A stretch of DNA of 64,000 bases from Nanobdellota archaeon (GTDB lineage Archaea > Nanobdellota > Nanobdellia > SCGC-AAA011-G17 > PNOQ01), in contig JAHJUI010000005.1 of the NCBI GenBank assembly GCA_018829185.1, forward strand, positions 682 through 64,681, given 5' to 3'. Below, piece by piece: positions 24,929-63,806 of this stretch (position 1 is the stretch's first letter; the number at the start of each line of letters is the position of its first letter). The notes below the pieces were generated by a model. The model saw nothing but the letters and a program-made list of their open reading frames with translations, searched no databases and had not been told where the DNA came from. The translations under genes and the position numbers were made by a program.

Positions 24929-25474
24929 TTAATTTGAGCAGCAACATGCAACTCCGGCTCCTAATAAATTTGTTTCTAATGATTCACATAATTGTTCTTC
25001 TGAAAATAAGGTGATTTTATCTATTGATTCGCAAGGTTTTTCTATTACTAGAACTTCTTCACAGGTTCCATAATTATATCCTTCTTCATGACAGGCCTCA
25101 TTACACCCTAATTTATTAACTTCTATTTTGCAAGCTATTTCAGACCATTTTAATATTTCTTTGACTTGATTTACTCTGTAATACATATAAAAGGGAAGTG
25201 GTTTGTATTCAAGTTTTTCACAATCATAAGGTGTGACTGTTTCATTATTTTCTATTTTCTTTTTTAAAATATACATTTGACAAGAAGGTTCTAACCATTT
25301 AGTTTGTTGGCATAATTCCATTGCTTCTTCATAATTTCCTTCGTTAGTTAATTTTATTGTTTCATGATAGATTTTATCTATTCTTTTAGAATCAAAATAG
25401 TAAAATAGTGCAATAATTGCTAGTAGGATTATTATAATAACTATCCAAAACCACCATTTTTTCAATATTTTCAT
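24929..25474 (-). CDS. membrane-anchored Cys-rich hypothetical protein
   Basis: N-terminal TM helix. Multiple Cys, including a C-terminal CCC. Confidence 0.45.
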   Translation of the reverse strand: MKILKKWWFWIVIIIILLAIIALFYYFDSKRIDKIYHETIKLTNEGNYEEAMELCQQTKWLEPSCQMYILKKKIENNETVTPYDCEKLEYKPLPFYMYYRVNQVKEILKWSEIACKIEVNKLGCNEACHEEGYNYGTCEEVLVIEKPCESIDKITLFSEEQLCESLETNLLGAGVACCCSN

Positions 25475-25475
25475 T

Positions 25476-25772
25476 TTATTTCCATTGACATTGGTTCTCT
25501 ACACATTGGCAACTTAAATCATAATTATCTTCATTGTAGCAACCTTTCCAAACGCAATCTGTTGTTACTGCCCGTTCAGTTTTACCTTTGCAAACTTCTC
25601 CTGAACAGCCACCCTCCATGCAATCTGCATTTGTTTCACATTCTCCAAATGTGGATTCCCCGCAAAACTCATTCGAAGGGAAAATCAAACTTGGATTTAA
25701 AATCTTTATTGCTACTAAAACTGCCAATATTAAGATAATCCAAAAATATATGCTTTTAAAGATTAAAGCCAT
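25476..25772 (-). CDS. small secreted Cys-rich protein
   Basis: Signal/anchor N-terminus and 10 Cys in 98 aa. Confidence 0.4.
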   Translation of the reverse strand: MALIFKSIYFWIILILAVLVAIKILNPSLIFPSNEFCGESTFGECETNADCMEGGCSGEVCKGKTERAVTTDCVWKGCYNEDNYDLSCQCVENQCQWK

Positions 25773-28836: not shown

Positions 28837-28904
28837 TTTTTGTCTCCTACACCTCGTAGTCTAGATAAGTTTGGATCAAAAGTATCTTTATAAAGGTTTC
28901 GGTC

Positions 28905-28946
28905 TGTTGTTTCTTTTGAGTAGTTACATATAGAAAGATTTATAAA
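28905..28946 (+). promoter_or_regulatory. 42-nt promoter-associated repeat TGTTGTTTCTTTTGAGTAGTTACA(T)ATAGAAAGATTTATAAA (copy A)
   Basis: Identical to 34268..34309 apart from one base. Ends in a box-A element. Confidence 0.45.
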
Positions 28947-33459: not shown

Positions 33460-33562
33460 TTTCTTAAGAAAAAGGTATTGATTTTTGTTTATAAAGGTTT
33501 GGTTTTGTAGTGTCTTATTGGTGGTAACAATATTTTAAAAACACATATTTTAATTTAATATT

Positions 33563-34239: not shown

Positions 34240-34267
34240 AAATGGGTATTTATAAATCTTTTGCTTT

Positions 34268-34309
34268 TGTTGTTTCTTTTGAGTAGTTACAGATAGAAAG
34301 ATTTATAAA
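34268..34309 (+). promoter_or_regulatory. 42-nt promoter-associated repeat (copy B), with box A about 27 nt upstream of the 34332 ATG
   Basis: TGTTGTTTCTTTTGAGTAGTTACAGATAGAAAGATTTATAAA. Near-identical to copy A. Confidence 0.45.
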
Positions 34310-37619: not shown

Positions 37620-37666
37620 GTTTATAAACCTTTCTATTAGTTGTTCTTTAACAGTAGTTACAAATT
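37620..37666. promoter_or_regulatory. mosaic copy of the promoter-associated element: inverted ATAGAAAGGTTTATAAAC plus AGTAGTTACAAAT
   Basis: The halves match the 43567..43595 copy but are arranged in opposite orientations. Confidence 0.35.
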
Positions 37667-38831
37667 ATTTTAGAATATTGATATTTTTAACCTTATTTTT
37701 TACATTATCTTCTTTTAATAAAAATTTAATGAATGGTTTGGCTTTTGTGTATTTTCTTTTAACAATAGTGTAAGAACGTCTTTTTTCAAACTTAACATTT
37801 TTGTATTTTTTCTTGAATTTAACTAAATGTTCTTTATGGGTTTTTAATGGTCCATAATGTTTTTTTGTTTTAGGTAAATTATCTTTTACTTTAAAATAGA
37901 AAATTGCTTTTTTCTCCCAATTCCAGCCAGCATCAATTATTTCAAAATCATTTTGCTTTAGTTTGTTTTTAATAAAGTCAAATGCTTTTAATAATTTACT
38001 GCCTACAATATCTTTTTTTCCAGATTTGGGAGTTACTTCTAATAGAATATAATCTTTGTAACTATTTAATTCAAATATTTCCTTTTGGAAACTTGGATTT
38101 TTTACTGCTTCTTTTAGTTTAGAAAATTGTGCTAATGATAACACCGCTGCTGCATTTCTTTCTTTTTGAACAGGATCAATTACTATTAAAGGGGATAATT
38201 TCTTGGCTTCATTTAGATTGAATAAAGCTTCATTTTTATTTTTGTAGTATTTCTCTGTGTCAATTATTACTTTTGGTTTCCATTTTTTTACGTTTTTTAT
38301 GAAGTTATCAAATGTTTTGTATTTTATAATTAATAATTCTGTTACATAGCCTGAGAAGCCCCTAATGTATGATTCTGCACCATAGAGTTTGTTTGCTTTT
38401 AAGAATAGTTTTAACTTTCTTATTTCGTTTTTCGTATCTTTGTTTGTTTTCTTGTTTACATAGCTTATATGTAATGGAGATATATCTGTTATGTTTAATG
38501 CTTGTTCTGGTTTTTTAATTTCTAAGACCGGAACTACTTCAAATAATAATCCATTAAACATTACATGGAAATAATCTCTAGAGCCATGAACTCTTTTTAT
38601 TTTATTAAATGATTTTTTAAGAACTATATGTAAAATATTTGATATTTCTTTTTCATTTTTGAATCTTACAAAAACATCTATATCTTTATTTCCTGGAAGG
38701 AATGTTCCTTTTGCATAGCTACCGCCTACTATTGCTTTTGCATTTCTTAAACGTTTATTTAATCTAGTTAGAAATATATTAGTTGTTTCTTTTAGCAATG
38801 TTACTTCTTTTTTATCTGGTATATATTCCAT
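37665..38831 (-). CDS. cca: CCA-adding tRNA nucleotidyltransferase, archaeal class I
   Basis: IVGGSYAKGTFLPGNKDIDVFVRF (GS...DxD) followed by the archaeal CCA body domains. 388 aa. Confidence 0.75.
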   Translation of the reverse strand: MEYIPDKKEVTLLKETTNIFLTRLNKRLRNAKAIVGGSYAKGTFLPGNKDIDVFVRFKNEKEISNILHIVLKKSFNKIKRVHGSRDYFHVMFNGLLFEVVPVLEIKKPEQALNITDISPLHISYVNKKTNKDTKNEIRKLKLFLKANKLYGAESYIRGFSGYVTELLIIKYKTFDNFIKNVKKWKPKVIIDTEKYYKNKNEALFNLNEAKKLSPLIVIDPVQKERNAAAVLSLAQFSKLKEAVKNPSFQKEIFELNSYKDYILLEVTPKSGKKDIVGSKLLKAFDFIKNKLKQNDFEIIDAGWNWEKKAIFYFKVKDNLPKTKKHYGPLKTHKEHLVKFKKKYKNVKFEKRRSYTIVKRKYTKAKPFIKFLLKEDNVKNKVKNINILK

Positions 38832-38866
38832 GGTTTAAAATTAAAAATTGAGTATTAAAAAGGTTT

Positions 38867-39901
38867 CTAAAAGTAAAAGTTCACTTTTGGTAATAATCCG
38901 TCAGAACTTCGCCCTATTATAAAATAAGAATCTCCTGTATCAATTTGTATATCTCCTTCTGGTGTTTTATGCGCATATGTTATTGTTGGGGTGTTATCTT
39001 TTGATTGTGGAGAAAATAAATAACTTGGAATCATTTGTTTTGGTAAGTTGAATATGTTTAAGTTCATTGGAGCATACAATATTGGTTTTTCAGTGTCTGA
39101 AACTCCAATTGTGTCATAGAAGTCTGCTGTGATATCTGCTATTTTTTCACAAACTAATGGATCATCTACATTACATTTTTCATTTAATGGGCAACCACAT
39201 TTTGCACAATCTCTGATTAATATTTTATTATGTGTACACAAGTAAGGTTTAGTTTCTGAGCATTTTCCTACTGGTGTTTGATCTTCGCATGTTGCTGTTT
39301 CATCTATTGTTAAAGTAGGTAATGCTTGTTCTATTGGGACACAACATTGGGTTTCTGCTTCTTTTTTGATCATTGTTGATAGAATTGGTTCAAAGCCTGT
39401 TGGACATCTTCCTTTTGCTGTGAATCCATTATTTTTACTGCAATCATCTGAAGTAGTACATTGTCCACTTCTACAAATCTGGTCTTCCTTACAGGTTATT
39501 ATTTGTTTTTCAGGATTACAATATGATTTAAGGTCTGTTGAACAACTTCCTGCTTGAGTATTGTCTGTGCATTTATCTAGGGGTTGACATAATCCGTTTT
39601 CGCATCCATCTGGACATATTGTTTTTTTGTATAATATCTTTAATCCAACACAAGTTGGTTCATATAGAACGTTTGAGTCAAAGCAATATGAATAAAGTTT
39701 CTTTGCTCCTAATTGTACGCTATTAACTTCTTTTATACATTTTGGGATGCAAGTGAATTCCCCTGTTTGTTCATAATCGGCTGGACAAGTATACACTGCT
39801 TCTTCTTCTATATTTGTTAGTGCAAATCCTGTAAATGGAAAGAAAGCTTGTGCTAATGGCACCATTAATACCAATATTAAAAGTAAAACACCTTTTTTCA
39901 T
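38867..39901 (-). CDS. secreted Cys-rich protein
   Basis: Signal peptide. About 40 Cys in EGF/laminin-like spacing. Confidence 0.5.
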   Translation of the reverse strand: MKKGVLLLILVLMVPLAQAFFPFTGFALTNIEEEAVYTCPADYEQTGEFTCIPKCIKEVNSVQLGAKKLYSYCFDSNVLYEPTCVGLKILYKKTICPDGCENGLCQPLDKCTDNTQAGSCSTDLKSYCNPEKQIITCKEDQICRSGQCTTSDDCSKNNGFTAKGRCPTGFEPILSTMIKKEAETQCCVPIEQALPTLTIDETATCEDQTPVGKCSETKPYLCTHNKILIRDCAKCGCPLNEKCNVDDPLVCEKIADITADFYDTIGVSDTEKPILYAPMNLNIFNLPKQMIPSYLFSPQSKDNTPTITYAHKTPEGDIQIDTGDSYFIIGRSSDGLLPKVNFYF

Positions 39902-39925
39902 ATTTAATTTATTGTTTTTTGTATT

Positions 39926-41845
39926 TTATAAAGGTTTCTTCTTGAAAAAAGGGAATAGGAATCCTAGGTTAAATGCGTAAGCTGGTATTGATTTTAGGAT
40001 TGGTTTTTCTTTTCTATTTGCTGCTGCTTCACTTTCGTAGCAGGTTAATCCATCCCAATATTCGTTTTCATCATCTCCACAACAACCAAAATTATTTGGG
40101 GCAGAATATATAAATTCTCCTACTTCAAATCTTGGTTCGGATACATTATTTGTCCAGATGTAACCTGCCTCTTCACAAGTGTTTATTCCGGGTAATCCTG
40201 TATCTAGATCCCACCAACCGAATCCTATGCATCTTGCTTCGTGTTTTTCTCCTAATGGGCCGTCAATGTCAATCATTTGTGTTCCGTCTCCTTTGTAACA
40301 AGTTCCTTCGTATACACAATAGTTTGGCCAGTAACTTCCATTACAGTATGCGAAATCTGTTTCATTGTCTGCATAATCGCAACCCTCTGCTTGATTACAT
40401 GGGCCACCACCCATTTCATTATCATAATTTGTTCCATTTGTATCGTAGTAGTCTCCAAAGAAGAATTGTTGATAAGCTGAATCTGTTGTATCACAAGCAT
40501 CCCCTATTTCATCTCCATCTATATCTCCTTGTGCTGGGTTGTATGTGTAATCGCAATTGTCATATAAATCCCATATTCCATCTTCATCTGTGTCATCTGA
40601 TTCTATTGACCAGATTCCAAATGTAGCTAACTTACATTCCCCATAACCTACTTTAAAATATCCTCCGTCGGTACCATAATCATCCCCATAACTATTTTTT
40701 ACAATCCAAGTTTGATCTGCATCGTCCCATCCGATTATAATTATTGCGTGGTCCCAATCGCTCGGATTTGTACAGGTTAAAACATTGTCTTCCCCAAGGC
40801 TTCCACTAGACATATCTAGCTCAGAAGAAACTGGGCCCTTTTCCATTATTATTTGTTTTATTTCCCCCATTATCGGTTGATATATAAACTCCTTTGAGTC
40901 GAATGAAATCAATCTAGTTTCCCAATCCAAGCACAAATCCTCAGAACAGGAGGTATCACTACATACTCCAGTTGAATTATGTTCACAAATTGAATCGCAT
41001 GTGCCTCCACTACACCCGCACCCAGTTCCATCAACATAAAACATACATTCTTCATCTACTACACCAAAATCTTTAATGAAATCTATTGCATGGGGCAAGC
41101 TCCCCCCACAACAACCACTATTTTCTACTGTATGACAATCAGAAACCAATTGTTCTTCTGATAAATTTAAATCTAAGTTTGGATTCCCAGAACGAACATT
41201 ATACTCTGCTTCTGTCATTCCTATTGCTGAAAAAGCATAACAACTTCCACAGATTCCTTGATCTTTAACTGGGGTCATCCAATCTTCACCATTATAATCT
41301 CTCCAATCAAAATTAGCTGGCAAAGTTCTGGAACTTTTTACTGGTATATTGTCTTTTTTAATTTCTTCCAGTAAAGGCATTTCTCGTGAAGATTTAACTG
41401 ATTTATCGTTTAAATTAGTTAATTTTGTAACAGTTCCAATTTCTCTCCCAAATCGATTCACACAAACTGCATATTCTTGTGTAAACTCGTCTTTACCATC
41501 TGTTTTTATTTTTGTTTTATAGCCTTCTTTTGCACAATAATTATATTTTTGACCACATTTTCCTTGTAAGAATTCCCATCCCCCACATTGATTTCTTTTG
41601 TTGAAAACACAAATTCCATGTTGTCCTCCATCTTCTTCTGTAATGATTTTATAATCATAACCTAATTCAGTACAATAAACTGCTGCTGGATTTGCCATCC
41701 CTATCCCTTCTCCACCACAGGTTGAAACTTGTTTAGGTTGCAAGAAATTATTAGTTTTAAATAAATCTTCAAAACTAAATGCTGTAGTATTAAAACTCAT
41801 TAAAATCAATACTAAAATTACATAAAGTACTATTGCCTTTTTCAT
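39926..41845 (-). CDS. secreted papain-family (C1A) cysteine protease with Cys-rich and Ca-binding (TSP3-like) C-terminal region
   Basis: QGICGSCYAFSAIG (catalytic Cys box), HAIIIIGWD (His box), NSYGDDYGTDGGYF (Asn/Trp box). DxDxDGxxD repeats (DNCDYTYNPAQGDIDGDEIGDACD). Confidence 0.7.
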   Translation of the reverse strand: MKKAIVLYVILVLILMSFNTTAFSFEDLFKTNNFLQPKQVSTCGGEGIGMANPAAVYCTELGYDYKIITEEDGGQHGICVFNKRNQCGGWEFLQGKCGQKYNYCAKEGYKTKIKTDGKDEFTQEYAVCVNRFGREIGTVTKLTNLNDKSVKSSREMPLLEEIKKDNIPVKSSRTLPANFDWRDYNGEDWMTPVKDQGICGSCYAFSAIGMTEAEYNVRSGNPNLDLNLSEEQLVSDCHTVENSGCCGGSLPHAIDFIKDFGVVDEECMFYVDGTGCGCSGGTCDSICEHNSTGVCSDTSCSEDLCLDWETRLISFDSKEFIYQPIMGEIKQIIMEKGPVSSELDMSSGSLGEDNVLTCTNPSDWDHAIIIIGWDDADQTWIVKNSYGDDYGTDGGYFKVGYGECKLATFGIWSIESDDTDEDGIWDLYDNCDYTYNPAQGDIDGDEIGDACDTTDSAYQQFFFGDYYDTNGTNYDNEMGGGPCNQAEGCDYADNETDFAYCNGSYWPNYCVYEGTCYKGDGTQMIDIDGPLGEKHEARCIGFGWWDLDTGLPGINTCEEAGYIWTNNVSEPRFEVGEFIYSAPNNFGCCGDDENEYWDGLTCYESEAAANRKEKPILKSIPAYAFNLGFLFPFFKKKPL

Positions 41846-41881
41846 ATAAACTAAACTTATTGAGAAAATATAAAAACCTTT

Positions 41882-43438
41882 CTATTTCTTATTTTTCTTT
41901 CTTTTCTTTGGTTTTTTGTTAATTTTAACTTTTTTATTAGAATTATGTTGTGCTATGAAAAGTATTGTTGATATTCCTAAAATTACAACTACCCCGATTA
42001 TTACTACTTTAGATTCTGGAGATAATCTTGCTAATTTTCTAGCTTCTTGAATTGGAGTAAGACATTCTTTTTTGTTATCTTCATTACAAATTTGATTTTC
42101 TGGACATCCACAAATTTCACAGTCTCTTTCTAAATTTCCATTTTCTGTGCAGTAGAATGGTTTATCTTGTGAACAACTTTCAAATTCAGTGTGATAATCA
42201 TCTAAGCAAGTGTTAGTTTTTTCTGATTCTTTTTCTGATTGACGAACTGGGACGCAACATTTTAAATCTTCTCCCCAAAGATCAGAACAATCTGATTCTA
42301 AACCAGGATTATTTGAATTTATAAAGCCACTTGCGCATTCTGTTTCACAATAACCATCTGCACCATAACAAGAAAGTTCCATTATTTCTGTTTCTGTTTC
42401 ATTTTCTTCAAATTCAGATATGCAATACTCCTCAAAACAAGTATAATCTTCTGAACAAGGACATTCGCTGCATAAATTGGTTGCAATTCCAGATAAACAT
42501 TTGATTCCTCCTAAACAATTACCGTCTAAGACAAGGGGTAATCCCTGAGCAATATTAGTACAGTCTATTGTTTCTTCTAGTTTTAAAGGATCATTTGCAC
42601 AACCTGGATCTGCTAAATCTATTAATCCATCTCCATCGTTATCTGCTCCATCATTACATGCAGGCTCATCTGGATTTTCAATATAATTTGGACTGCAGCT
42701 TCCATCTTCTAAACAAAAACGACTATTTCCCCCAGTAGCATTTATACATCCCACATTAGTATCTCCCCCATCTTCACTAACTGGACTACAAGCTGTACAA
42801 CCTGTTTCCCCACATATTGGTGTTGTTCCACTGCAAGTACAATTATATGGTCCATCTGGATCACATCCAGGAACTAATTCCCACTCATCAGTACAAAACA
42901 TTCCAGGATAAATATCTGAACATTCATTTGAACTGGCACCCTCACCACACCCACTAATTGGGGGCGAGGCCTTTAAACATTCTCCAGTTAGTTTGTCACA
43001 ATACCCGTACTCTAATCCTCTTGCTTCAATACATTCTAAATTAGTTTCACATCCTCTGCATTCGTGAGGAACATTCACATTCTCACAATATGGTTCGTTA
43101 GAAGTTAAATCGCAAGGACAATCCCAACAACAATTAGATCTATCTTCTCCATTAGTACAAACATTGTCTCCACATTCGCTAGGTACACAACATTGTTTTT
43201 GATTGTATGGGGGAGAAATATCCCCTGGGCAATCAAGGATTCCTTTTGTATATTCTGAAGAACCACAGCTAAATTTACATGTTCCTCCAAAACCAGAACA
43301 AGTTGTAACTGCATTTCCAGTTACTAAATTAAAATCTAAATTGTTTATCCAGTCAATGAATGAAAATGCACTAACCGAAGTAGCTACAAAGGATACTAGG
43401 ATTATTAAAAATATTGATATCACAACTCTTTTTTTCAT
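41882..43438 (-). CDS. Cys-rich surface protein with C-terminal TM anchor and poly-basic tail
   Basis: Signal peptide. More than 50 Cys. DNDGDGLIDLADPGC Ca-binding-like repeat. TM plus KKVKINKKPKKRKKNKK. Confidence 0.5.
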   Translation of the reverse strand: MKKRVVISIFLIILVSFVATSVSAFSFIDWINNLDFNLVTGNAVTTCSGFGGTCKFSCGSSEYTKGILDCPGDISPPYNQKQCCVPSECGDNVCTNGEDRSNCCWDCPCDLTSNEPYCENVNVPHECRGCETNLECIEARGLEYGYCDKLTGECLKASPPISGCGEGASSNECSDIYPGMFCTDEWELVPGCDPDGPYNCTCSGTTPICGETGCTACSPVSEDGGDTNVGCINATGGNSRFCLEDGSCSPNYIENPDEPACNDGADNDGDGLIDLADPGCANDPLKLEETIDCTNIAQGLPLVLDGNCLGGIKCLSGIATNLCSECPCSEDYTCFEEYCISEFEENETETEIMELSCYGADGYCETECASGFINSNNPGLESDCSDLWGEDLKCCVPVRQSEKESEKTNTCLDDYHTEFESCSQDKPFYCTENGNLERDCEICGCPENQICNEDNKKECLTPIQEARKLARLSPESKVVIIGVVVILGISTILFIAQHNSNKKVKINKKPKKRKKNKK

Positions 43439-43566
43439 ATTTTGTTTAAACCCCCTCTTTGTTTATAAACATTTCTATATTTTACTGTTCTCTTTTTATA
43501 TTAAAATTAAAGGATTTTGTATATAAAAAGGTTTCTTAGGGGTTATTTTGTTAGTAATCTCTTGTT

Positions 43567-43595
43567 AGTAGTTACAAATAGAAAGGTTTATAAAC
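43567..43595 (+). promoter_or_regulatory. promoter-associated element AGTAGTTACAAATAGAAAGGTTTATAAAC (copy C)
   Basis: Box A is about 25 nt upstream of the ATG at 43616. Confidence 0.4.
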
Positions 43596-44556: not shown

Positions 44557-45294
44557 ATGATTCCTAAATTATATTTTAAGAGAAGTAAAGAAAAAGATTA
44601 TTTTAATGTTTTCTGTGCTATAACTGGGAATGCTTATAGTCATAATTTTGCAAAAAACTTTCCTGAATCTTTAATCAAAAAAGTGAGCAAAAGAGATTAT
44701 AAAGATGTAAAAAAAGATATTAAAAAATTTATAGACCCTGCATATGAAACAAAAGGTAACAAAATTTATCCTTTTTTTAAAAAAATTGAAAAAGAATGGA
44801 AACCTGTTGAAAAAGAATATTTTAAAAGATTAGAAAGAGTAATGAAAAAAAGATTTTTGGCTAAGGAAGTAAATGTATATGCTACTTTTTTAGGGAGGTG
44901 TGATTATAGATATGCATTACCTTGTCCTTGGTTTAAAATTAGTTTAAAACATCCACAAGAGGTTTGTGTAAAAATTATGATGCATGAAATGATGCACTTT
45001 ATGTTCCACTGGCATTGGCAAGAATATAGTCGAAAACATATAGGAATAGAACTAACTTCCCATTTAAAAGAAGCATCTAGCTTTTTATTAAATGAAGAAT
45101 TTTCAGATTTATTGAAAATAAAAGATATGGGATATGACATGCATCAAGATCTAAGAAAAGAGCTAATAAAAGCTTGGAGGCAGACAAAAGATTTTAACAA
45201 GTTTCTTGATAAAAGTTTTCCAATAATGAAGAAGTGGGGTAAAGAGAATGGGAATTTAATGAAAGAAGAATCCATCCAAAATATCAAATGTTAG
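44557..45294 (+). CDS. hypothetical protein with HExxH motif (putative zincin-like metallopeptidase)
   Basis: KIMMHEMMHFMFHWHW. Otherwise unassigned. Confidence 0.35.
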   Translation: MIPKLYFKRSKEKDYFNVFCAITGNAYSHNFAKNFPESLIKKVSKRDYKDVKKDIKKFIDPAYETKGNKIYPFFKKIEKEWKPVEKEYFKRLERVMKKRFLAKEVNVYATFLGRCDYRYALPCPWFKISLKHPQEVCVKIMMHEMMHFMFHWHWQEYSRKHIGIELTSHLKEASSFLLNEEFSDLLKIKDMGYDMHQDLRKELIKAWRQTKDFNKFLDKSFPIMKKWGKENGNLMKEESIQNIKC

Positions 45295-45419
45295 GTCACT
45301 TTGGTTTCTTAGTTTTTGCTAGAAGAATATAAAAATTAATTTTTTAGAAGAATTGTTATGGAGGTTTAAAAATATTTAGTATTAATTTCTTCAAAAAAAA
45401 TTCAACCCTGTCTAAAAAA

Positions 45420-45872
45420 ATGAAAATACATATATGTGGGATTTATGGATGTGGAAAAAGCACTTTGGCAAAGATTCTTTCTAAAAAATTGGATATTTCT
45501 TGTTATTTATTAGACGATATAAAATATAAAGTAAAATATACAGAAATTAGAAGTGTTGAAGGGGGGATTGAAAAAGTTAGAGATATATGTAAAAATTCTT
45601 CTTGGATAACTGAGGGCATTTGGACTAACTACGCTAAAGAAGCTTTCAAAAAATCAGATATAATAATTTTTATGCAAACACCTAAAATAATTTGTTGCTT
45701 TAGGATTCTAAAAAGATTTTTTTTAAGAAAAAAGGAGAAAGGCGACACTTTAATAGGTGCACTAAAATTAATAAAAAAAGTCTACAAATATCATTCAAAA
45801 GATGAAACTGTTTCTGAGAAGGCGCATAAAGAAATAATCAATAAATACAAAAAAACAACAATTAATAATTAA
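45420..45872 (+). CDS. P-loop NTPase (adenylate-kinase/FlaR-like small kinase)
   Basis: ICGIYGCGKSTLAKIL Walker A at the N-terminus. 150 aa. Confidence 0.5.
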   Translation: MKIHICGIYGCGKSTLAKILSKKLDISCYLLDDIKYKVKYTEIRSVEGGIEKVRDICKNSSWITEGIWTNYAKEAFKKSDIIIFMQTPKIICCFRILKRFFLRKKEKGDTLIGALKLIKKVYKYHSKDETVSEKAHKEIINKYKKTTINN

Positions 45873-46002
45873 AAATAATGAAGATTTTAAGAGAGTTTAT
45901 GGATTAATTACTAAAAAATCTAAACTAGATTAAGACTTATATTTGAAGTAAAGAAATCTCCTAAAAGGTAAGTTTTTTAAGGTTTTTTATCATTATATAT
46001 TT

Positions 46003-48093
46003 ATGCTGAATTTTAATAAATACTGGAGATTACCTTTAGTTATTGGTTTGGCTACTAGTTTAATTGGTTGTGGTAAACAGAATCCTATTCCTCCTGTTAT
46101 TCCTGTTATTCCTGATTTGCCCGTTGTTACTGAAGAAATAAATGCTGCACAGGGTGGTGTGATTGAAACAGGTACTTATGAAACAGGTATTTATAAGGTT
46201 GAGTTTCCCCCAAATTCTTTGTCACAAGATACAACTGTTGAGATTGGTGCTCCTGATGAAATTCCAAATTATCCTGTTTCGGAAAATTTAGAGCAAGCAA
46301 GTTCTTTTTTAGATATAAATCTTGGTTCTGCTTCTTTGGTTGATACTTGTTATATTTATATTCCTTATTCTGGTTTTGATAATGATAATCCACCTATGCC
46401 TTTTTTGTTTAATAGTAGTGGAAATCCTTTTGATATAGCAAGACCTTCTTCTGAAGATGAACATGTTAAAATAAATTATTTTAATGCAAGAAGGGATGGC
46501 GACTGGATTGCTGGTTTGTTTGATTTTATTGATTATGTTCAAGTGCCTAAGTTAACATTTCCAGATGGCTTTGATTTTAATTCTAGTGATCCTGTTATTT
46601 TACTAGTTCATGGGCAAGGTGGTAGTGCAGAAACATTTAATGAGCTAAATGATCCTCAGCCAACAATGTACGAATTTCTTAAGGAGGGTTATAATGGTAG
46701 AATTGGGACATGGGAATATCCTAGTATATTATCTGTTGATGTTACTGGTTTTGTGTTAGAAGATAAAATTGCTGAGTTAGAAGCCGAGCATGGAACATTT
46801 CCTTTTAAATTTGATGTTGTTACTCACAGCAGGGGTGGTTTAGATATAAGGTATTTTGTTAGAAATGGAAATGCTGATAAGGTAAATAAGGTTGTTTTTC
46901 TTGGAACACCGAATAATGGAACAACAATTGAGGCAGCTGGATATCATTTATTATTCCCCCCTGAAAGGAGTATTGATGATTGGTTTAATCCTTGGTCTTC
47001 AGGATTTTTGGATTGTTTAACTGGAAGTTCATTTTTAAATTCAATAAACACTTCTACTAGTGAAGAATTTAATGTTGATTATTACCCTATTGCTGGTAGC
47101 ATTTCAAATGATAATCCTTGTATTCCTGGAGAAGATGATCATTTAGTTGGTGTTGCTTCTGTTGATTTACATAATTTTCCTCATGAAAATGTTAGATTAC
47201 ATTCTTTAAATGAGATAGATTTGAGTCATGGAAGGTTGGTTGAGAATAGGAGGGATTTATTTATACATTTAGAAGATATTCTTAATCTAGATAATCCTTC
47301 TTTAAACGGGTTTGTAGTTTTTAGTGCTTTTGGAGTAATTATTTATTATCTCGATACTGGCGAAACAGAAAGATTAGGGGGGCAGGGGTATACCAAACCT
47401 GGTATTTCAAGAGATGGGGAAAAAATTTCTTTTAGTAAGATGTTGGGGGAGCCCACGATTCATATTATGAATGATATTATTCCTGGTGGAGAAATGATCC
47501 CGATAACACCCGGAGCCGGTCCTAGTTGGTCTCCTGACGGGAATGAACTTGCTTATATGTATGATGGAGATATTTGGATTGTTAATGTCAATACACTTAA
47601 TAAAAGAAATTTGACCAATTCTCCATCTTCTGTAGAATTATATCCAGATTGGTCTCCGTTAGGAGATAAAATTGCATTTAATTCTGATAGAGATGGTATA
47701 CTAAGTATTTATACTATTCCTGTTGATGGAGGAATTTGGACACGACTAACCTCTTCCCCCTGGCCTACTAAGTATCCAAGTTGGTCTCCTGACGGGAATG
47801 AACTTGTTTTTTACACTCATGTTGGTGGTGGTGGTAAAGTAGAAATATTCAAAATGAATAGTGATGGGACTAATAACAATAGGTTAGTATATTCTTCAAC
47901 AAATTACACAACAGATTACCCTTCTTGGTCTTATCCAAATGGAGATTGGATTTGTTTTAGACAACATCGGACTAATTATCCCGATATAGGAAAAATATAT
48001 TATGTAGATAGTGAAATTGGTGGTTTCCCCATTAGATTAACTCCTGACTTTTCGAGTGCAGATCAAGTTTTTTCTAGTTGGTATTGCGAATGA
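46003..48093 (+). CDS. lipoprotein-like alpha/beta-hydrolase (lipase/PGAP1-like) fused to TolB-like PD40 beta-propeller repeats
   Basis: Signal peptide with LIGCG lipobox-like Cys. VTHSRGG (GxSxG-type nucleophile elbow). Repeated WSPDGNELAY / WSPLGDKIAFNSDRDG PD40 motifs. Confidence 0.5.
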   Translation: MLNFNKYWRLPLVIGLATSLIGCGKQNPIPPVIPVIPDLPVVTEEINAAQGGVIETGTYETGIYKVEFPPNSLSQDTTVEIGAPDEIPNYPVSENLEQASSFLDINLGSASLVDTCYIYIPYSGFDNDNPPMPFLFNSSGNPFDIARPSSEDEHVKINYFNARRDGDWIAGLFDFIDYVQVPKLTFPDGFDFNSSDPVILLVHGQGGSAETFNELNDPQPTMYEFLKEGYNGRIGTWEYPSILSVDVTGFVLEDKIAELEAEHGTFPFKFDVVTHSRGGLDIRYFVRNGNADKVNKVVFLGTPNNGTTIEAAGYHLLFPPERSIDDWFNPWSSGFLDCLTGSSFLNSINTSTSEEFNVDYYPIAGSISNDNPCIPGEDDHLVGVASVDLHNFPHENVRLHSLNEIDLSHGRLVENRRDLFIHLEDILNLDNPSLNGFVVFSAFGVIIYYLDTGETERLGGQGYTKPGISRDGEKISFSKMLGEPTIHIMNDIIPGGEMIPITPGAGPSWSPDGNELAYMYDGDIWIVNVNTLNKRNLTNSPSSVELYPDWSPLGDKIAFNSDRDGILSIYTIPVDGGIWTRLTSSPWPTKYPSWSPDGNELVFYTHVGGGGKVEIFKMNSDGTNNNRLVYSSTNYTTDYPSWSYPNGDWICFRQHRTNYPDIGKIYYVDSEIGGFPIRLTPDFSSADQVFSSWYCE

Positions 48094-48281
48094 ATAATTT
48101 TAATTTAACCATTAAATCTTTTTGAGTTTTCTTTCTTCATCTTCTGAACTATTTTTATAAAGTTTTTTATTGTTTATTAATTGGTGATTATATGGTGCCC
48201 ACAATATTAGTTGTGATTAATTATTAAGAAACTATTTACGCTTTAGAAAACATTAAAAACACCGAAATATAAATTAAAACT

Positions 48282-49040
48282 ATGATAAAAATAGGTCCTG
48301 CGGGTATTGGAGGGATTAAAGAAATAGAAAGTAATTTTAAGTATTTTTCTAAGAATAAAATTAAAGCTGCTGAAGCTGCTTTTACATATGGTGTTTACCT
48401 AAAAGAAAAAGAAGCTGTAAAAATTGGTAAATTAGCTAAAAAATTAAATATTAGCTTAAGTGTTCATGCTCCTTACTGGATTAATTTAAATTCTGAAGAA
48501 AAAATTAAAGTTAAAAAAAGTAAAGAAAGGATTTTGAAAGCTGGGTTTATTGGGGAAAAATTAGGGGCTACTCATGTTGTATTTCATCCTGGTTATTATG
48601 GTAAAAAGAGTAAAGAAGAAACTTATGAAAATATAAAGAATGAAATTTTAGATTTGCAAAAAGATTTTAAGAAATGGAAAATTAAGTTAGCTCCTGAAAC
48701 AACTGGAAAAGTGAATGTTTTTGGTTCTATTGAAGAGATTTTACAATTAGTAAAAGATACTAAATGTAGTTTTTGTTTGGATTTTGCACATTTACTTGCT
48801 AGAAGTCAAGGAAAAATGAGCTATGGTGAAATGTTAAAACAATTTAAGAAATTTAAACATATTCATGCACATTTTTCAGGTATTGAATACTCTGCTAAAG
48901 GTGAAAGAAGACATAAAAAAACTCCTGAAAGCGAGATTAAGAAACTAATGAAAGTTGTTAAAGGCCAAAATATAACTGTTATTAATGAAAGTCCAGATAT
49001 GGTGAATGACGTTTTGAGTATGATAAGTTATTTAAAGTAA
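48282..49040 (+). CDS. nfo: endonuclease IV-like AP endonuclease (TIM barrel, family 2)
   Basis: SLSVHAPYWINL and VVFHPGYY correspond to the conserved Nfo metal-binding blocks (HxxYLINL, NFHPG). Confidence 0.55.
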   Translation: MIKIGPAGIGGIKEIESNFKYFSKNKIKAAEAAFTYGVYLKEKEAVKIGKLAKKLNISLSVHAPYWINLNSEEKIKVKKSKERILKAGFIGEKLGATHVVFHPGYYGKKSKEETYENIKNEILDLQKDFKKWKIKLAPETTGKVNVFGSIEEILQLVKDTKCSFCLDFAHLLARSQGKMSYGEMLKQFKKFKHIHAHFSGIEYSAKGERRHKKTPESEIKKLMKVVKGQNITVINESPDMVNDVLSMISYLK

Positions 49041-57579: not shown

Positions 57580-58056
57580 ATGTTAGATAAATTAAAAGAA
57601 AAATTAAAGGAAATAAAAGAATTAGATAAGTTTAAAGATTGGAATGGAAAACATTTTGATGCTTATCTTTGTAGTATTTTTGTTGCTGATAAATTACAAT
57701 TTGATTTTTATGATCCTGAAACTGATAGGATAACTAGTTTTAATGGTGAAGAAGTTATTGAAGAGCAAGAAATTCTTAGAAAAGAGAAAAAGAAATTAAT
57801 TGAATTAAAATTAGATGATCTTAAAATTGATTTAGATAATGTTAAAGAAATTATTAAAAAATTAATAGATGAAAAATATAAGGGAGAAAGTTCAAATAAA
57901 GAAATTGTTTTTTTACAAAATTTTGAAGATAAAATTATTTGGAATGTAACTTATATTACAGATACTTTTAATATTTTAAATGTTAAAGTTGATGCTAAAA
58001 CTGGAGAAACTCTTTTTGAAAAGATTGAATCTGCTTTAAATTGGAAAGTTAACTAA
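57580..58056 (+). CDS. hypothetical coiled-coil protein
   Basis: 158 aa, Lys/Glu-rich. Confidence 0.4.
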   Translation: MLDKLKEKLKEIKELDKFKDWNGKHFDAYLCSIFVADKLQFDFYDPETDRITSFNGEEVIEEQEILRKEKKKLIELKLDDLKIDLDNVKEIIKKLIDEKYKGESSNKEIVFLQNFEDKIIWNVTYITDTFNILNVKVDAKTGETLFEKIESALNWKVN

Positions 58057-60139
58057 GGTCAATGTAAATTTCTCTGTCTGTTCCTTCTCCTGCTAAGGTT
58101 AAAAGTGGTACTGGAATAGCTGCTTCGTTTATTATTTCTTGAGAAATTGCATTTATTGCTGCGTTTATTGAACTGCTCATTGTTACGTTTATATAATCTT
58201 CTCCTACTTCAAAAATTCTGAATTCTGTTGGGTAATTCATAGTTGCTGTTGTTGTGAAATAATGTATTCCATTATATTCTTCATAGGTGTTTGCGTGGTT
58301 ATGTCCGCTGATTACAACTATTGTTTTGTAATCATTTTTGTAGTTTTCTAGAATTGTTTCAATTTCATCTTCAGTGCATCTAAACCCATTAGAAGAAGTA
58401 TTCATATACTCATCATTGCAATGCATTCCTATGTGATGAAATAAGAATAATTTTTTGTTTTGACCTTGATAAGTTGATAATGTTTCACTTAAAAAAGTTT
58501 CATTGTATCTGCTTTCAGATGTACCTTCGCTTATTTCTGAAAGGCCTACAAACAAGTTATTTCCCTTGACAAAATTCCAATTCATCATATCTGAACCAAA
58601 TATGCTTTCATAAATTAGTTGACATATTGGATCGTCAATATTGTCGTGCCAATGTGCACCGATTAAATAATAATCTGAACCAACTGTTCCTAATCCATCT
58701 GCTATTGATTTAAATGCGTTAAAAGAAGTATTTTGGTTGCAATCTGGATTTGCTACATTATCTCCCGTGAAGATTGCAAAATCATAATCAATATTTTGTG
58801 CTTCTTGGATTGCATCTTGTAAAGCAATTGTTGGTGCTAAGGAAGTTCTGGATGTTGAATTTATCCATTGGCAGATTCCAGTTGAACATTCACTTACATA
58901 ATCAGTTAAATAATTTTCGCAATCTGTTCTTCCGTCTCCCGGAACAGAATTTCCGCAAAGACCTGCAATAATTATGTGTGTATCCGTGATTTGTAAAAAT
59001 GTTAAAGGTTGTTCTTCTATTTGTTGCTCCATATAAGTATAATAATCTTGTATTTCATTTTCTTGTAACTTTCTGTTCCACACTGCAACTTCATCTATTG
59101 CTCCATAGAAATAATTATAAGCAATTAATTTATTATATCCTATTGCAAAGGGATGTATTATTGGTTGAGATATGTAACCTACATAGGATTCTGAATCTTT
59201 TACTCCATTAACATAAAAAGTGATATTTGGTGCATCATAGATCATAATTAAATTGTGCCATTCGTCTTGGCTCCAAGAATTTTTATTTGTTGTTGTAGAT
59301 GAGCCTGTAACCCCCATTCTAAGTGATCCTTGACTAATCCCAAAATATGTTGACCACCCGCCCGGTGTTCCACCTGTATTTTGTGAGACTAAACCCCTAT
59401 TTTTTGATAGTGAAGAATTAATTGTTTCTGTTGGTTTAAACCAAAGTGAAACTGTAAAAGTTTCTGTTAAATTTAAACTCAAGTCATTTCCAAAACTTAC
59501 GTAATTATTCACCCCATTAAAATTTAAAGCATTGTCAAAAGCCCCAACTATTTGAGTTGCTCCATTTATTGTTCCATCGTTATTATTAATTCCCCCTTCA
59601 TCTTCTGCATTTGTGTCTAAACTCCAGTAAGAAATTAATCCTGATTGGGGTAATGGATTGTATGTTCCTTTTTGTTTTATTTCTCTAACAAATATTGCTG
59701 CTGGGGCTGTGGGGATTAAAATTTTTTCATTTACTAAAACTTTTGGGAATAATTCTATTCTTTCTATTTTTCCTATACAAGTTATATCAACATTAAACCA
59801 TTTTGAAGAAAATTCTTCTAATCCATCAATAATATTTCCTGATTTAGTTTCTTGATTTGTTATAATTCTAATAACAAAGCTATTTATTGAGACTTCTGCT
59901 TTGTTTTCTATTAAAATTTCTAAACTATCACATCCTATTGAAGGATCAGATGCTTTTGCATCTAATATTTTTACATCGACTCCTATAAGTACCATTACTT
60001 CTTCTATTTCTTCTCCAGTTTGTTCTGTTTGAGAATTAAAAAATTGTCCGCCCCATCTAAAAACTAAGGCTGCTAATACTATTGTGAAACCAATTAATAG
60101 AACTGTTGCTATTAAAGGAGAAATGCCTCTTTTTTTCAT
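58049..60139 (-). CDS. archaeal class III (type IV pilin-like) signal peptide fused to LamG-like and calcineurin-like phosphoesterase domains
   Basis: N-terminus MKKRGISPLIATVLLIGFTIVLAALVF is the canonical archaeal prepilin/archaellin signal (KRG/ISPLIATVLLI). LamG_3 block (AIDEVAVWNRKLQENEIQDYY). Phosphoesterase motifs (LQITDTHI, FTGDNVAN, FHHIGMH, SGHNHANT). Box A lies 20 nt upstream. Confidence 0.6.
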   Translation of the reverse strand: MKKRGISPLIATVLLIGFTIVLAALVFRWGGQFFNSQTEQTGEEIEEVMVLIGVDVKILDAKASDPSIGCDSLEILIENKAEVSINSFVIRIITNQETKSGNIIDGLEEFSSKWFNVDITCIGKIERIELFPKVLVNEKILIPTAPAAIFVREIKQKGTYNPLPQSGLISYWSLDTNAEDEGGINNNDGTINGATQIVGAFDNALNFNGVNNYVSFGNDLSLNLTETFTVSLWFKPTETINSSLSKNRGLVSQNTGGTPGGWSTYFGISQGSLRMGVTGSSTTTNKNSWSQDEWHNLIMIYDAPNITFYVNGVKDSESYVGYISQPIIHPFAIGYNKLIAYNYFYGAIDEVAVWNRKLQENEIQDYYTYMEQQIEEQPLTFLQITDTHIIIAGLCGNSVPGDGRTDCENYLTDYVSECSTGICQWINSTSRTSLAPTIALQDAIQEAQNIDYDFAIFTGDNVANPDCNQNTSFNAFKSIADGLGTVGSDYYLIGAHWHDNIDDPICQLIYESIFGSDMMNWNFVKGNNLFVGLSEISEGTSESRYNETFLSETLSTYQGQNKKLFLFHHIGMHCNDEYMNTSSNGFRCTEDEIETILENYKNDYKTIVVISGHNHANTYEEYNGIHYFTTTATMNYPTEFRIFEVGEDYINVTMSSSINAAINAISQEIINEAAIPVPLLTLAGEGTDREIYIDLS

Positions 60140-61643: not shown

Positions 61644-63806
61644 TTATTTATGTTTTTTATGCTTTCTTTTTTTATGTTTCTTTTTTCTTTTCTTTTTCTG
61701 TTCTTTTTCTTCTTCTTTTCTTCTTCTGTTGAAAAACAAAAATCCTGCGATAGCAATAACTAGTAGCATTAGTGAAAGTGTTAACTTCCATAATGGTGGT
61801 TCTGTAACTTCTGTTGTTGGTAATTCTGTTGTCGGTGCTTCAATTTCTGTTCTACATATACCGCTATCGCAGGCGGTGTTATTTGGGCACTCAAAAATAT
61901 CAGACCATTCATAACATGGATCTTGGTCATAATTTCTACATACTACATATGTATTATCATCTATGCAAACTTTTTGGTCTTTTGCACATTCATCTCTACA
62001 GGGCAAAGAAGGTTCGCATGCTAATTCTGCTTCGGAATTATCTGTTGGGCTCATGCATCCTGGGTCATCTGGGAAGTCTGTGCATCCATCATTATCATTG
62101 TCTCTGCCATCATTACAATCTGGATAATTATATGAGTGGGTTATGTAGTCGTCGTCATCGTCATCTGGTGGAGTTGATTGACAATTTGATGCTGAACTAC
62201 AATCTTGATCAGCACAATCTACTTCATTATCCCCGTCATTGTCTATTCCGTCATTACAATTTTCTTGGATTTGATCATAAATACATGCTAGTGGGCCACA
62301 AATATTAATTGTAAATGGATTTCCATCATCGCAATTAGAATCATTGAAATAGTGTGTTATATGACCTAACCCACTCCCTTCTTCAACGCAATCATCATCT
62401 GTACAATCTACTCCATCATCAAGTTGTGGCCCGGTGCCCACTTGGCATCCTGTAATTGGATCGCCTGTAATTGGGTCACAAGTTTCTTCCCCATTGCAAT
62501 ATAAATTATCATTACAATAACTATGAGCTGGATTATTTTCGCATTCTGAATTAACGTTACATATATCTTCTGTACAATCAAAACTATCATCACAATCATT
62601 CTGGTTTTCACATTCAACAACTGTTACACTTCCTGTTGAAGCATCTCCTTGTGTTTCTATTTCCAACATTACATAATCATTATAAATATAATCATAATAC
62701 CATTCTCCTGGCGGGCTTAATCTTGGTGGATCTATTTCTTGGTCATCTATCTCTCTTAATTTAGGGGTTGCACAATCTGATGCTGAATCACATTGATCTT
62801 GGCCTTCTCCTGGAACTTCTGTGCAAACATTTTGTACGCATTCTGCATGTGTTATTCCGGCGGTAATTCCTTCATAATCCCAAGCTAAAAAAGTTACAAT
62901 GTTGTTTGAAATATAGTCTTCTAAATTTTCGTAATAAAAGATATTTCCTGAGAAAGAAACTTCTGTTTGGGAGTTTGTTGAATATAATTCTACAAAATTA
63001 CTCTCACTATAATCATAAATATATAGTTTTCCTTCATGTGGCAAACTAGATAGGGGATCCTTGAAATAACCCTCCCAAGTAAAATTAATCCTTTCTAAAT
63101 TATTTGGTACTTCAAAGAAATATTTTAAGGCTCCATGTAAACAATCTTTTTTAGATGCAAATAAAGCAAAATCAGAGTTTTCACCATTGGGGTCTTGTAA
63201 ATTAGAATAAGTTAAATTTTCCATGCAATCATAAGGATTGTCATATTGTATTTCACAAGAAAATCTATTTGGGGCAATTTCATCTGGGCCCTTGTTTTCG
63301 CAATCTGAAATCATTTCTACATCTAAATGCCATTGATCTGCCCAAGTTTCGTTTGTATCTTGATCAGAATGAAGTTCAAAAACTTCTCCCGGATAAGTAG
63401 AATCACATCCTGCAGAGTTACAGACTTGTGCATACCAAGTTAGATCTGCTTCTGCTGTTAATGTAATTGATCCTCCTGAGACAATATCTCCCTCAGCTAA
63501 ACAATCAGTTTGATCATCGTAATCACAACTTGAGAAACTTGGTGAATCATCTATTAATAATTTACACGAAGCTCCACCATCATCAAATTCTGCTGTGAAA
63601 ATTATGTTTTCTCCTACAATGTAGTTTAGCCCAATTGGGGGTTGTACAGTTATACTTGTTAAAGAAGGAAGTGGTGCTCCAGGTGGTGCTAATCTTGGTT
63701 CTTTAATAATAACTGGAAAAAATTTTAAAGAAAAAAATATACTAAAAGTTAGAAAAATCAAGATAAATACAGATATATAAATAGTCCAAACTTGCTTTCT
63801 GTCCAA
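61644..63806 (-). CDS. Cys-rich surface protein with TSP3-like Ca-binding repeats, C-terminal TM anchor and poly-basic tail
   Basis: N-terminal TM/signal. More than 60 Cys. CNDGIDNDGDNEVDC and CNDGRDNDNDGCTD repeats. TM plus RRRKEEEKEQKKKRKKKHKKRKHKKHK. Confidence 0.5.
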   Translation of the reverse strand: MDRKQVWTIYISVFILIFLTFSIFFSLKFFPVIIKEPRLAPPGAPLPSLTSITVQPPIGLNYIVGENIIFTAEFDDGGASCKLLIDDSPSFSSCDYDDQTDCLAEGDIVSGGSITLTAEADLTWYAQVCNSAGCDSTYPGEVFELHSDQDTNETWADQWHLDVEMISDCENKGPDEIAPNRFSCEIQYDNPYDCMENLTYSNLQDPNGENSDFALFASKKDCLHGALKYFFEVPNNLERINFTWEGYFKDPLSSLPHEGKLYIYDYSESNFVELYSTNSQTEVSFSGNIFYYENLEDYISNNIVTFLAWDYEGITAGITHAECVQNVCTEVPGEGQDQCDSASDCATPKLREIDDQEIDPPRLSPPGEWYYDYIYNDYVMLEIETQGDASTGSVTVVECENQNDCDDSFDCTEDICNVNSECENNPAHSYCNDNLYCNGEETCDPITGDPITGCQVGTGPQLDDGVDCTDDDCVEEGSGLGHITHYFNDSNCDDGNPFTINICGPLACIYDQIQENCNDGIDNDGDNEVDCADQDCSSASNCQSTPPDDDDDDYITHSYNYPDCNDGRDNDNDGCTDFPDDPGCMSPTDNSEAELACEPSLPCRDECAKDQKVCIDDNTYVVCRNYDQDPCYEWSDIFECPNNTACDSGICRTEIEAPTTELPTTEVTEPPLWKLTLSLMLLVIAIAGFLFFNRRRKEEEKEQKKKRKKKHKKRKHKKHK

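Follow-up and report, generated by a model that had tools for sequence, protein, structure and literature searches.

We analyzed a cluster of three neighboring genes encoding Cys-rich proteins in a 64,000-nt stretch of DNA from a Nanobdellota archaeon (assembly GCA_018829185.1, contig JAHJUI010000005.1), hereafter called the window, whose positions are used as coordinates throughout. The open reading frames (ORFs), designated A, B, and C, all lie on the minus strand (Table 1). Cys accounts for 7.6% of the residues of A, 5.3% of B, and 10.4% of C, against a window median of 1.2%, and a hydrophobicity scan found a Lys-rich N terminus with a hydrophobic, signal-like segment in each protein. An initial annotation, made from the sequence alone, had described three clustered, exported, Cys-rich proteins at this position, which agrees with the ORFs, the signal-like N termini, and the Cys contents; its estimate of 40 to 60 Cys in the flanking proteins fits C but not A. 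The window has a GC content of ~30% and includes the archaeal core genes for aCPSF1, the proteasome beta subunit, and the CCA-adding enzyme, the last directly downstream of A, with further core genes elsewhere in the window for the alpha and beta subunits of phenylalanyl-tRNA synthetase (PheRS), deoxyhypusine synthase, GlmS, and phosphoribosyl pyrophosphate (PRPP) synthetase. Because archaeal core genes surround it, the cluster is chromosomal and set among housekeeping genes. A viral or defense origin was also considered and rejected, as PADLOC gave no matches and the sole PHROG match was a weak, generic peptidase hit for B. Near-identical proteins from metagenome-assembled genomes (MAGs) are labeled "Nanoarchaeota archaeon" at NCBI, a DPANN lineage.

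Table 1. Features of the cluster and its surroundings, in window positions; res, residues; AF2, AlphaFold2; pLDDT, predicted local distance difference test score; TM, transmembrane; BRE, B recognition element.
Feature	Position	Strand	Basis
Gene A: secreted Cys-rich orphan, 344 aa, 26 Cys	38867..39901	-	ORF, homologue search
A Cys-free C-terminal domain	38870-39139	-	
A 48-aa module CxxxTPxGxCSxxKPYxC...CxxCGCP	39149-39292	-	
A CCVP module	39335-39445	-	
BRE/TATA-like motif AAACCTTTATAAA, 24 nt upstream of A ATG, overlapping B stop codon	39925..39937	-	
Gene B: pre-pro C1A (papain-family) peptidase, DUF333-C1-TSP3, 639 aa, 34 Cys	39926..41845	-	ORF, Pfam, 498 homologues
B hydrophobic tail and KKK KPILKSIPAYAFNLGFLFPFFKKKPL, putative membrane tether	39929..40006	-	conserved in P0002-P0005
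B Cys-rich C-terminal domain, res 453-615, lineage-restricted	40001..40489	-	homologue coverage
B thrombospondin-type-3-like, putative Ca-binding unit, res 418-452 DTDEDGIWDLYDNCDYTYNPAQGDIDGDEIGDACD	40490..40594	-	profiles, motif scan, family consensus
B C1A catalytic domain, res 175-410	40616..41323	-	Pfam, alignments, Foldseek
B Tyr386 codon	40688-40690	-	
B catalytic codon Asn384	40694-40696	-	
B catalytic codon His366	40748-40750	-	
B family-specific Cys-rich insertion in C1 domain, res 276-310	40916..41020	-	alignments
B Tyr203 codon	41237-41239	-	
B catalytic codon Cys202	41240-41242	-	
B catalytic codon Gln196	41258-41260	-	
B linker, res 143-174, ending before mature-type LPANFDWRD	41324..41419	-	pLDDT, alignment to cathepsin mature N termini
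B tandem DUF333, res 43-142	41420..41719	-	Pfam match at 49-95, AF2, invariant Cys
B predicted signal peptide, res 1-22 MKKAIVLYVILVLILMSFNTTA, followed by FSF motif	41780..41845	-	inferred, hydrophobicity scan
BRE/TATA-like motif AAAGGTTTTTATA, 24 nt upstream of B ATG	41869..41881	-	
Gene C: type-I membrane-anchored Cys-rich mosaic, 518 aa, 54 Cys	41882..43438	-	
C Lys-rich tail	41885-41950	-	
C TM segment	41951-42007	-	
C A-like module	42062-42211	-	
C CCVP modules (two)	43181-43303, 42248-42373	-	
C acidic double-disulfide repeat	42599-42658	-	NCBIfam, motif
C signal peptide	43367-43438	-	hydrophobicity scan
Island hypervariable between strains, versus L001	40150..43500	.	43-90% DNA identity in most 150-bp windows
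Scar of deleted 580-aa HEMGH (zincin-motif) gene	43487..43534	-	orphan promoter motif 43522-43534, start remnant ATG>ATA

B is, with near certainty, a bona fide C1A peptidase. The Pfam Peptidase_C1 model (PF00112) matches residues 175-408 at 123.4 bits, against a cutoff of 20.7 (E 1.8e-35), and the C1B model (PF03051) reaches only E 0.061. Cys202 and His366 align with the catalytic Cys and His of cathepsin L, DPP1, and rhodesain in phmmer alignments and aligned blocks, and Gln196, Cys202, His366, and Asn384 are invariant in an alignment of 93 family sequences; the C1A sequence boxes recognized by the initial annotation are thus present and carry the catalytic dyad. AF2 modeled residues 170-460 with confidence (pLDDT mostly >85), and in Foldseek searches the model resembled cruzain and cathepsins S and L at E ~1e-12, with a template modeling score (TM-score, target) of ~0.8. 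Within the C1 domain, B has an insertion of ~45 residues that is not found in cathepsins, and each of its seven Cys is kept in at least 90 of the 93 homologues. The I29 propeptide is typical of eukaryotic C1A zymogens, although it is not needed for C1A membership. B gave no match to Inhibitor_I29, and that place is occupied by a DUF333 tandem and a linker predicted to be disordered (pLDDT <50 at residues 152-166).

The DUF333 domain was overlooked by the initial annotation. Pfam DUF333 (PF03891) matches residues 49-95 at 57.9 bits, against a cutoff of 25 (E 1.2e-15), and the duplicated secondary structure of the AF2 model points to a second, divergent copy at residues 100-142. The tandem consists of two helix plus three-strand units with conserved Cys, modeled at pLDDT 84.9 when taken alone and also confidently in the full-length model. 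Beyond the catalytic domain, residues 418-452 fit the pattern DxDxDGxxDxxDNC...NPxQxDxDGDxxGDxCD, with paired Cys, which describes a single thrombospondin type 3 (TSP3) unit with two putative Ca-binding loops and not an array of DxDxDGxxD repeats as had been proposed. The Pfam TSP_3 model (PF02412) scored 20.4 bits here, below its cutoff of 25. Many homologues do have precomputed PF02412 matches, the family consensus contains the unit as well, and NCBIfam models that contain TSP3 recognize this region, with E values of 1.6e-10 and 1.7e-7. Of the Pfam assignments anticipated for this protein, Peptidase_C1 was therefore recovered and TSP_3 fell short of its cutoff. The suggested epidermal growth factor (EGF)-like Cys spacing found no counterpart, as no EGF-family Pfam model matched B residues 453-639, A, C, or a further Cys-rich protein, D (61644..63806), at E<=10.

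The remainder of B is lineage restricted. Its C-terminal domain (residues 453-615) is modeled at pLDDT <50, had no Pfam or NCBIfam matches, and is shared only among proteins P0001-P0005 and locus L089, the last being the one, distant locus returned when JGI metagenomes were queried with this segment for more alleles. The hydrophobic tail ends in KKKPL, and NCBIfam models of archaeosortase and exosortase sorting signals (PGF-CTERM and similar) matched neither the B tail nor the C tail at E<=10. From these features we infer that B is an active, exported, and membrane-tethered enzyme.

B belongs to a large prokaryotic family that is annotated in databases but experimentally uncharacterized, defined by a tandem DUF333, a C1 domain with a seven-Cys insert, and a TSP3 unit. 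A word-indexed search (E<=1e-5) returned 498 homologues, nearly all with DUF333 and Peptidase_C1 and often with TSP_3, carrying source names such as "C1 family peptidase," "DUF333 domain-containing protein," and "putative hemolysin." Most closely related to B are hundreds of prokaryotic proteins of the DUF333-C1 type (PF03891 and PF00112, with or without PF02412), among them proteins of Dehalococcoidia, Anaerolineales, and Nanoarchaeota MAGs, which share 40-48% identity (340-570 bits), have invariant catalytic residues, and follow the same architecture as B up to residue ~452. Past that point they differ: B adds its Cys-rich C terminus and hydrophobic/KKK tail (otherwise seen only in P0002-P0005 and L089), whereas the others end in variable modules, including beta-helix, P_proprotein, dockerin, and type IX secretion system (T9SS)-type domains. 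Among GTDB species genomes, 527 loci were confirmed over many bacterial and archaeal phyla, with the best at 40-45% identity in Ignavibacteria, Anaerolineae, Gemmatimonadota, Thermoanaerobaculia, and Dehalococcoidales and others at 29-37% in Parcubacteria, Methanosarcinales, Aenigmatarchaeota, Pacearchaeota, Micrarchaeota, and other Nanoarchaeota.

Eukaryotes are the best-known source of C1A and TSP3 modules, which makes it tempting to regard B as a protease recently taken up from a eukaryote, and the top PDB matches of B are indeed eukaryotic cathepsins. Eukaryotic C1A enzymes (papain, cathepsins L, K, and S, cruzain, and DPP1) resemble B in the catalytic Gln, Cys, His, and Asn, in the LPxxFDWR mature N terminus, and in fold. 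However, the eukaryotic character of the PDB matches follows from the content of the PDB, and cathepsins reach only ~79 bits and ~25-30% identity to B, far below its prokaryotic relatives, so that the premise of typically eukaryotic C1A, TSP3, and EGF-like modules fails. The DUF333 fusion, which stands in place of I29, and the seven-Cys insert belong to the prokaryotic family, the putative anchor and C-terminal TSP3 unit set B further apart from eukaryotic C1A enzymes, neither an I29 propeptide nor an EGF domain was found, and B is syntenic amid core genes in four related genomes. Eukaryotic acquisition is effectively refuted by these observations. In a bootstrapped neighbor-joining tree of the DUF333 plus C1 region, the only tree type computed and one whose deep nodes are weak, the window clade joins a bacteria-dominated, largely Chloroflexota clade (bootstrap 83), separate from the clade of Micrarchaeota, Pacearchaeota, and Aenigmatarchaeota. 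The initial annotation had proposed a phylogeny as a check for horizontal origin; if there was horizontal transfer, it would have run between bacteria and archaea. The locus corrects a tempting eukaryote-like, host-interaction reading and draws attention to a very large and broadly distributed prokaryotic family of extracellular C1A enzymes without a characterized member.

The association of DUF333 with these proteases extends beyond fusion. Across 80 loci, DUF333 is fused to C1 in 26, always at the N terminus, and is encoded by a separate adjacent gene in 3, the other 51 having C1 only. In Methanoculleus (L068:414-2768) and Altiarchaeota (L052:1-2215), a stand-alone DUF333-tandem gene lies directly downstream of the gene for a secreted C1 protease, and encodes a protein with a signal peptide of its own and a TM segment at the C terminus. 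The C1 proteases of these two loci carry N-terminal TSP3 repeats, a split form of the architecture that is fused in the window. This pattern of fusion and fission speaks for DUF333 as a dedicated extracellular partner of the C1 proteases, where it could act as a prosegment, inhibitor, or docking element. The literature found on DUF333 contained incidental mentions only, with no functional study, and no solved structure was found; a review of the papain superfamily was set aside as a lead because the domain it treats is DUF3335. Linkage to a protease, whether by fusion or as a secreted, membrane-anchored neighbor, suggests a function that can be tested for this domain, long classed as one of unknown function.

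Comparison with a sister genome (L001; GCA_043823355.1), which carries B allele P0002 and C allele P0122, revealed a pattern of strain variation. The flanks are 94-98% identical between the two genomes. Identity falls sharply within the island listed in Table 1, which is interrupted by one block of 94-99% identity at 42820-43119, inside C. At the protein level, A is 100% identical, whereas B shares 86% in DUF333, only 35-58% in the C1 domain (35-50% at residues 200-410), and 93-100% at the C terminus, and C shares 65-73%, with indels. Synonymous divergence (dS) exceeds 1 in the divergent segments, compared with 0.007-0.26 in neighboring genes, and the ratio of nonsynonymous to synonymous divergence (dN/dS) there is mostly 0.1-0.7, a combination that indicates old alleles joined by recombination rather than recent episodes of positive selection. 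For the window C1 core, the top non-self match reaches ~50% identity and is other than the syntenic orthologue. A 2.1-kb block at 38053-40152, which runs from the 3' end of B through A into the 5' half of the CCA-adding enzyme gene, agrees with L001 at 98-100% (99-100% over nearly its whole length), against 94-98% in the surrounding genome, and may thus reflect a very recent recombination event or sweep with an end point inside B. A third genome, L005, matches the window throughout at 97-99% identity and has an extra gene, between F and C, for a 580-aa secreted protein with an HEMGH motif. This gene is intact in L005 (7515-9257) and L001 (4670-6412) and cleanly deleted in the window; its product had no Pfam, NCBIfam, or PDB matches.

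Since near-identical strains differ in the B catalytic domain, in most of C, and in whether the HEMGH gene is present, the locus is most likely a strain-variable surface-protein island, shaped by recombination of old alleles and a deletion. False hypervariability would also arise if the L001 contig were a chimera of two co-occurring relatives, and the occurrence of P0002 and P0122 on one contig each, alongside the recovery of the window allele in four independent assemblies, is in keeping with such an error. A chimera would, however, have to accommodate at least four switches of identity within 3.4 kb, including the 94-99% block inside C, and a DUF333 segment that is 82% identical to L001 and unlike any sampled relative (72% for L008). 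Of the parts of B, C1 likewise diverges fastest in an independent comparison with L008, although against L002 it is only marginally lower than the other domains. We therefore consider an assembly artifact improbable. A diversity-generating retroelement was rejected as a source of the variation: the 64-kb window contains no template repeat of the B or C segments, no reverse transcriptase domain was found among the ORFs scanned, and the divergence affects synonymous sites generally. In this DPANN lineage the catalytic domain, and not the accessory domains, has been replaced between near-identical strains, alongside the loss of a second predicted protease gene. A surface enzyme engaged in an arms race would be expected to show such a pattern, and among uncultured episymbionts it could point to determinants of partner specificity. 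The protease family was already annotated, and the strain variation is new here; the replacement of the catalytic domain and the fusion/fission link with DUF333 merit follow-up.

A further difference between these genomes lies beyond the cluster, where a segment of ~3 kb (45239-48282) is present in the window and L005 and replaced in L001 by ~560 bp of a methyltransferase gene. The segment includes an AAA_18/dNK-like ORF of 150 aa. It also carries the gene (46003..48093) for a lipoprotein-like protein of 696 aa, with DUF7379, PD40, and DPPIV_N domains (tricorn-like), the second case near the cluster of a secreted, peptidase-like gene that varies between strains.

We judge it probable, for the package as a whole, that B is an anchored C1A enzyme acting in surface proteolysis and that its gene lies in a surface-protein island that varies between strains. 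B would be a Sec-exported, disulfide- and calcium-stabilized papain-family (C1A) endopeptidase on the outer face of the membrane, probably held there by its short C-terminal hydrophobic tail, and its activity at the cell surface would supply peptides to a metabolically reduced archaeon. On the features described above, such nutritional scavenging appears to be the most likely role of B, and the cutting of proteins on contacted surfaces would follow as a consequence. Expressed extracellular C1A peptidases have been reported in sediment archaea (PMC6461988), and further secreted peptidase-like genes occur near the cluster, namely, the DPPIV_N/PD40 gene in the window and the HEMGH gene in relatives.

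Several observations weigh against this account. B of the window has Tyr203 beside the catalytic Cys, the only such case among the 93 sequences (Trp in the other 92), and Tyr386 near Asn384, as in 7 of the 93; the sister allele P0002 retains Trp at both positions. The hydrophobic stretch of the B tail is only ~13-15 residues long and fits no known sorting signal, and the scanned ORFs of the window yielded no peptide transporter genes. A role of DUF333 as a prosegment or inhibitor is conjectural, because its fold had no relative in the PDB (best Foldseek E 1.1) and the linker is modeled as disordered. The divergent L001 allele comes from a single MAG contig, for which chimeric assembly is conceivable, and literature searches returned no activity, localization, or expression data for B or any other DUF333-C1 member.

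The same cluster could instead serve contact with a host, as the initial annotation proposed, A and C acting as adhesins, B opening or remodeling the host S-layer at attachment, and the B and C alleles setting host specificity. The organism is a DPANN archaeon by its Nanoarchaeota label, A, B, and C are all predicted to be extracellular, and their order is kept in L001, L005, and L008. Furthermore, strains that otherwise share 94-100% identity show hypervariability in the B catalytic domain and in C, and the alleles there are old (dS >1), as would be expected if a variable partner imposed balancing or diversifying selection. Lineages outside DPANN, such as Anaerolineae, Ignavibacteria, and Gemmatimonadota, commonly have members of the protease family, however, so that the DUF333-C1-TSP3 architecture is not specific to symbiosis. 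A is fully conserved between the very strains in which B and C vary, A and B each have a separate promoter-like element, the CCA-adding enzyme gene parts B from the Cys-rich genes in L002, and dN/dS is below 1 almost everywhere, all of which leave host contact a possible but unlikely explanation. More doubtful still is that B and C form a strain-specific "contact" locus whose catalytic core is swapped as a cassette among coexisting Nanoarchaeota strains, with old alleles kept under balancing selection, so that each strain would cut a different partner surface or escape a different inhibitor; DUF333 would then be the cognate inhibitor or docking partner throughout the family, in cis here and elsewhere in trans as a membrane-anchored protein.

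Processing of the organism's own surface proteins provides another candidate role, with A, C, or an S-layer precursor as the substrate of B. The precedent is Cwp84 of Clostridioides difficile, an S-layer-associated, cathepsin-L-like protease with a lectin-like domain that cleaves SlpA (PMC4089489). Both enzymes are prokaryotic and cathepsin-L-like in fold, have additional noncatalytic domains, are surface-located (predicted in the case of B), and are encoded amid genes for surface proteins, which for B are its Cys-rich neighbors. Cwp84 differs in having a conventional propeptide, a lectin-like domain, and cell wall-binding repeats and in lacking DUF333, the TSP3 unit, and the Cys-rich modules of the B locus, and it was not among the 60 best PDB sequence matches listed for B. 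In addition, most family members in other phyla are without A- or C-like neighbors, given the few full-length homologues of those proteins, and a catalytic domain swapped between strains would not be expected of a housekeeping maturase. By analogy with Cwp84, such a maturation role for B can be proposed but seems quite improbable.

Surface proteolysis remains the preferred reading for B, and its neighbors A and C are probably lineage-restricted surface proteins built from short, unnamed disulfide modules, with A secreted and C membrane anchored. Full-length homologues numbered only five for A and three for C, all from the same lineage, with essentially none beyond it. When a profile of the A family was compared with 1.84 billion representative proteins, only one module of ~45-50 residues recurred, in 126 proteins and with up to 21 matched stretches per protein. 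This module, C-x-D/E-x-T-P-x-G-x-C-S-x-x-K/R-P-Y/F-x-C...C-x-x-C-G-C-P, is not in Pfam. A and C have this ~50-aa Cys module in common (BLASTP E 1e-10), and the Cys-free C-terminal domain of A, ~90 residues long, is conserved. In C, residues 258-284 (CNDGADNDGDGLIDLADPGC) match NF033662 at E 3.5e-8 and 33 bits, against a cutoff of 41, and contain the motif CNDGxDNDGDGxxDxxDxxC; residues 261-280 of this acidic repeat also match the C-rich Ca-binding domain of human Teneurin-4 (PDB 7plp) at E 1.1e-4, which ties a common prokaryotic surface repeat to a module of metazoan adhesion proteins. C has one copy of the repeat amid unrelated Cys modules. D has two, together with a C-like anchor, and NF033662 scores range from 30 to 33 bits, below the cutoff. 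The related repeats that the initial annotation saw in the flanking genes therefore correspond to a Cys module shared by A and C and an acidic repeat shared by C and D, from both of which the TSP3 unit of B differs.

An aromatic motif stands right behind the predicted signal-peptide cleavage site of all three cluster proteins, as A/FSFxDxF in B (41755-41780) and C (43340-43367) and as A/FFPFTGF, invariant in the A family, in A (39820-39845; the slash marks the cleavage site). It is common to the cluster proteins and distant relatives (L002:2994-4151, L002:4232-5656, and P0293) and may be a processing or sorting signal.

The gaps between A, B, and C are only 24-36 bp. A BRE/TATA-like motif, AAASSTTTWTAWA, nevertheless occurs seven times in the window, against 0.47 expected (28887-28899, 33488-33500, 37621-37633, 39925-39937, 41869-41881, 43522-43534, and 43582-43594), and for five of the seven, among them the copies ahead of A and B, a start codon follows 22-29 nt downstream. 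This position points to transcription of A and B from their own promoter-like elements despite the small gaps and implies leaderless or short-leader transcripts. An intergenic element of ~40-60 nt is repeated at 28887-28946, 34250-34309, 37621-37662, and 43553-43594, with weaker copies at 33488, 37295, and 60162; its core, AGTAGTTACA, is present in four exact copies, all intergenic and all on the plus strand, beside promoter motifs, and the element might serve as a binding site for a regulator or as a terminator/promoter module. The gene order C-B-A-CCA-adding enzyme, continuing to the proteasome and aCPSF1 genes, is kept in L001 and L005, and the short L008 contig retains C-B-A and the CCA-adding enzyme gene. 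In the more distant L002, the latter sits between B and two Cys-rich genes.

Elsewhere in the window, the Cys-rich gene placed by the initial annotation at 24929..25772 is Cys rich but resolves into two ORFs in different frames, one of 181 aa with 12 Cys (24929..25474) and one of 98 aa with 10 Cys (25476..25772). Both have an N-terminal TM segment and a Cys-rich body and lie between the PheRS alpha and beta genes; neither had significant family matches, the 181-aa ORF giving two subthreshold N-terminal Pfam matches. Three paralogous exported proteins (12764-14419, 14452-17997, and 58049-60139) contain Metallophos with or without Laminin_G_3. Two of them are joined by direct DNA repeats (13466-13803 versus 15946-16280, 71-77% identical), and the third has an N terminus resembling that of archaeal type IV pilins.

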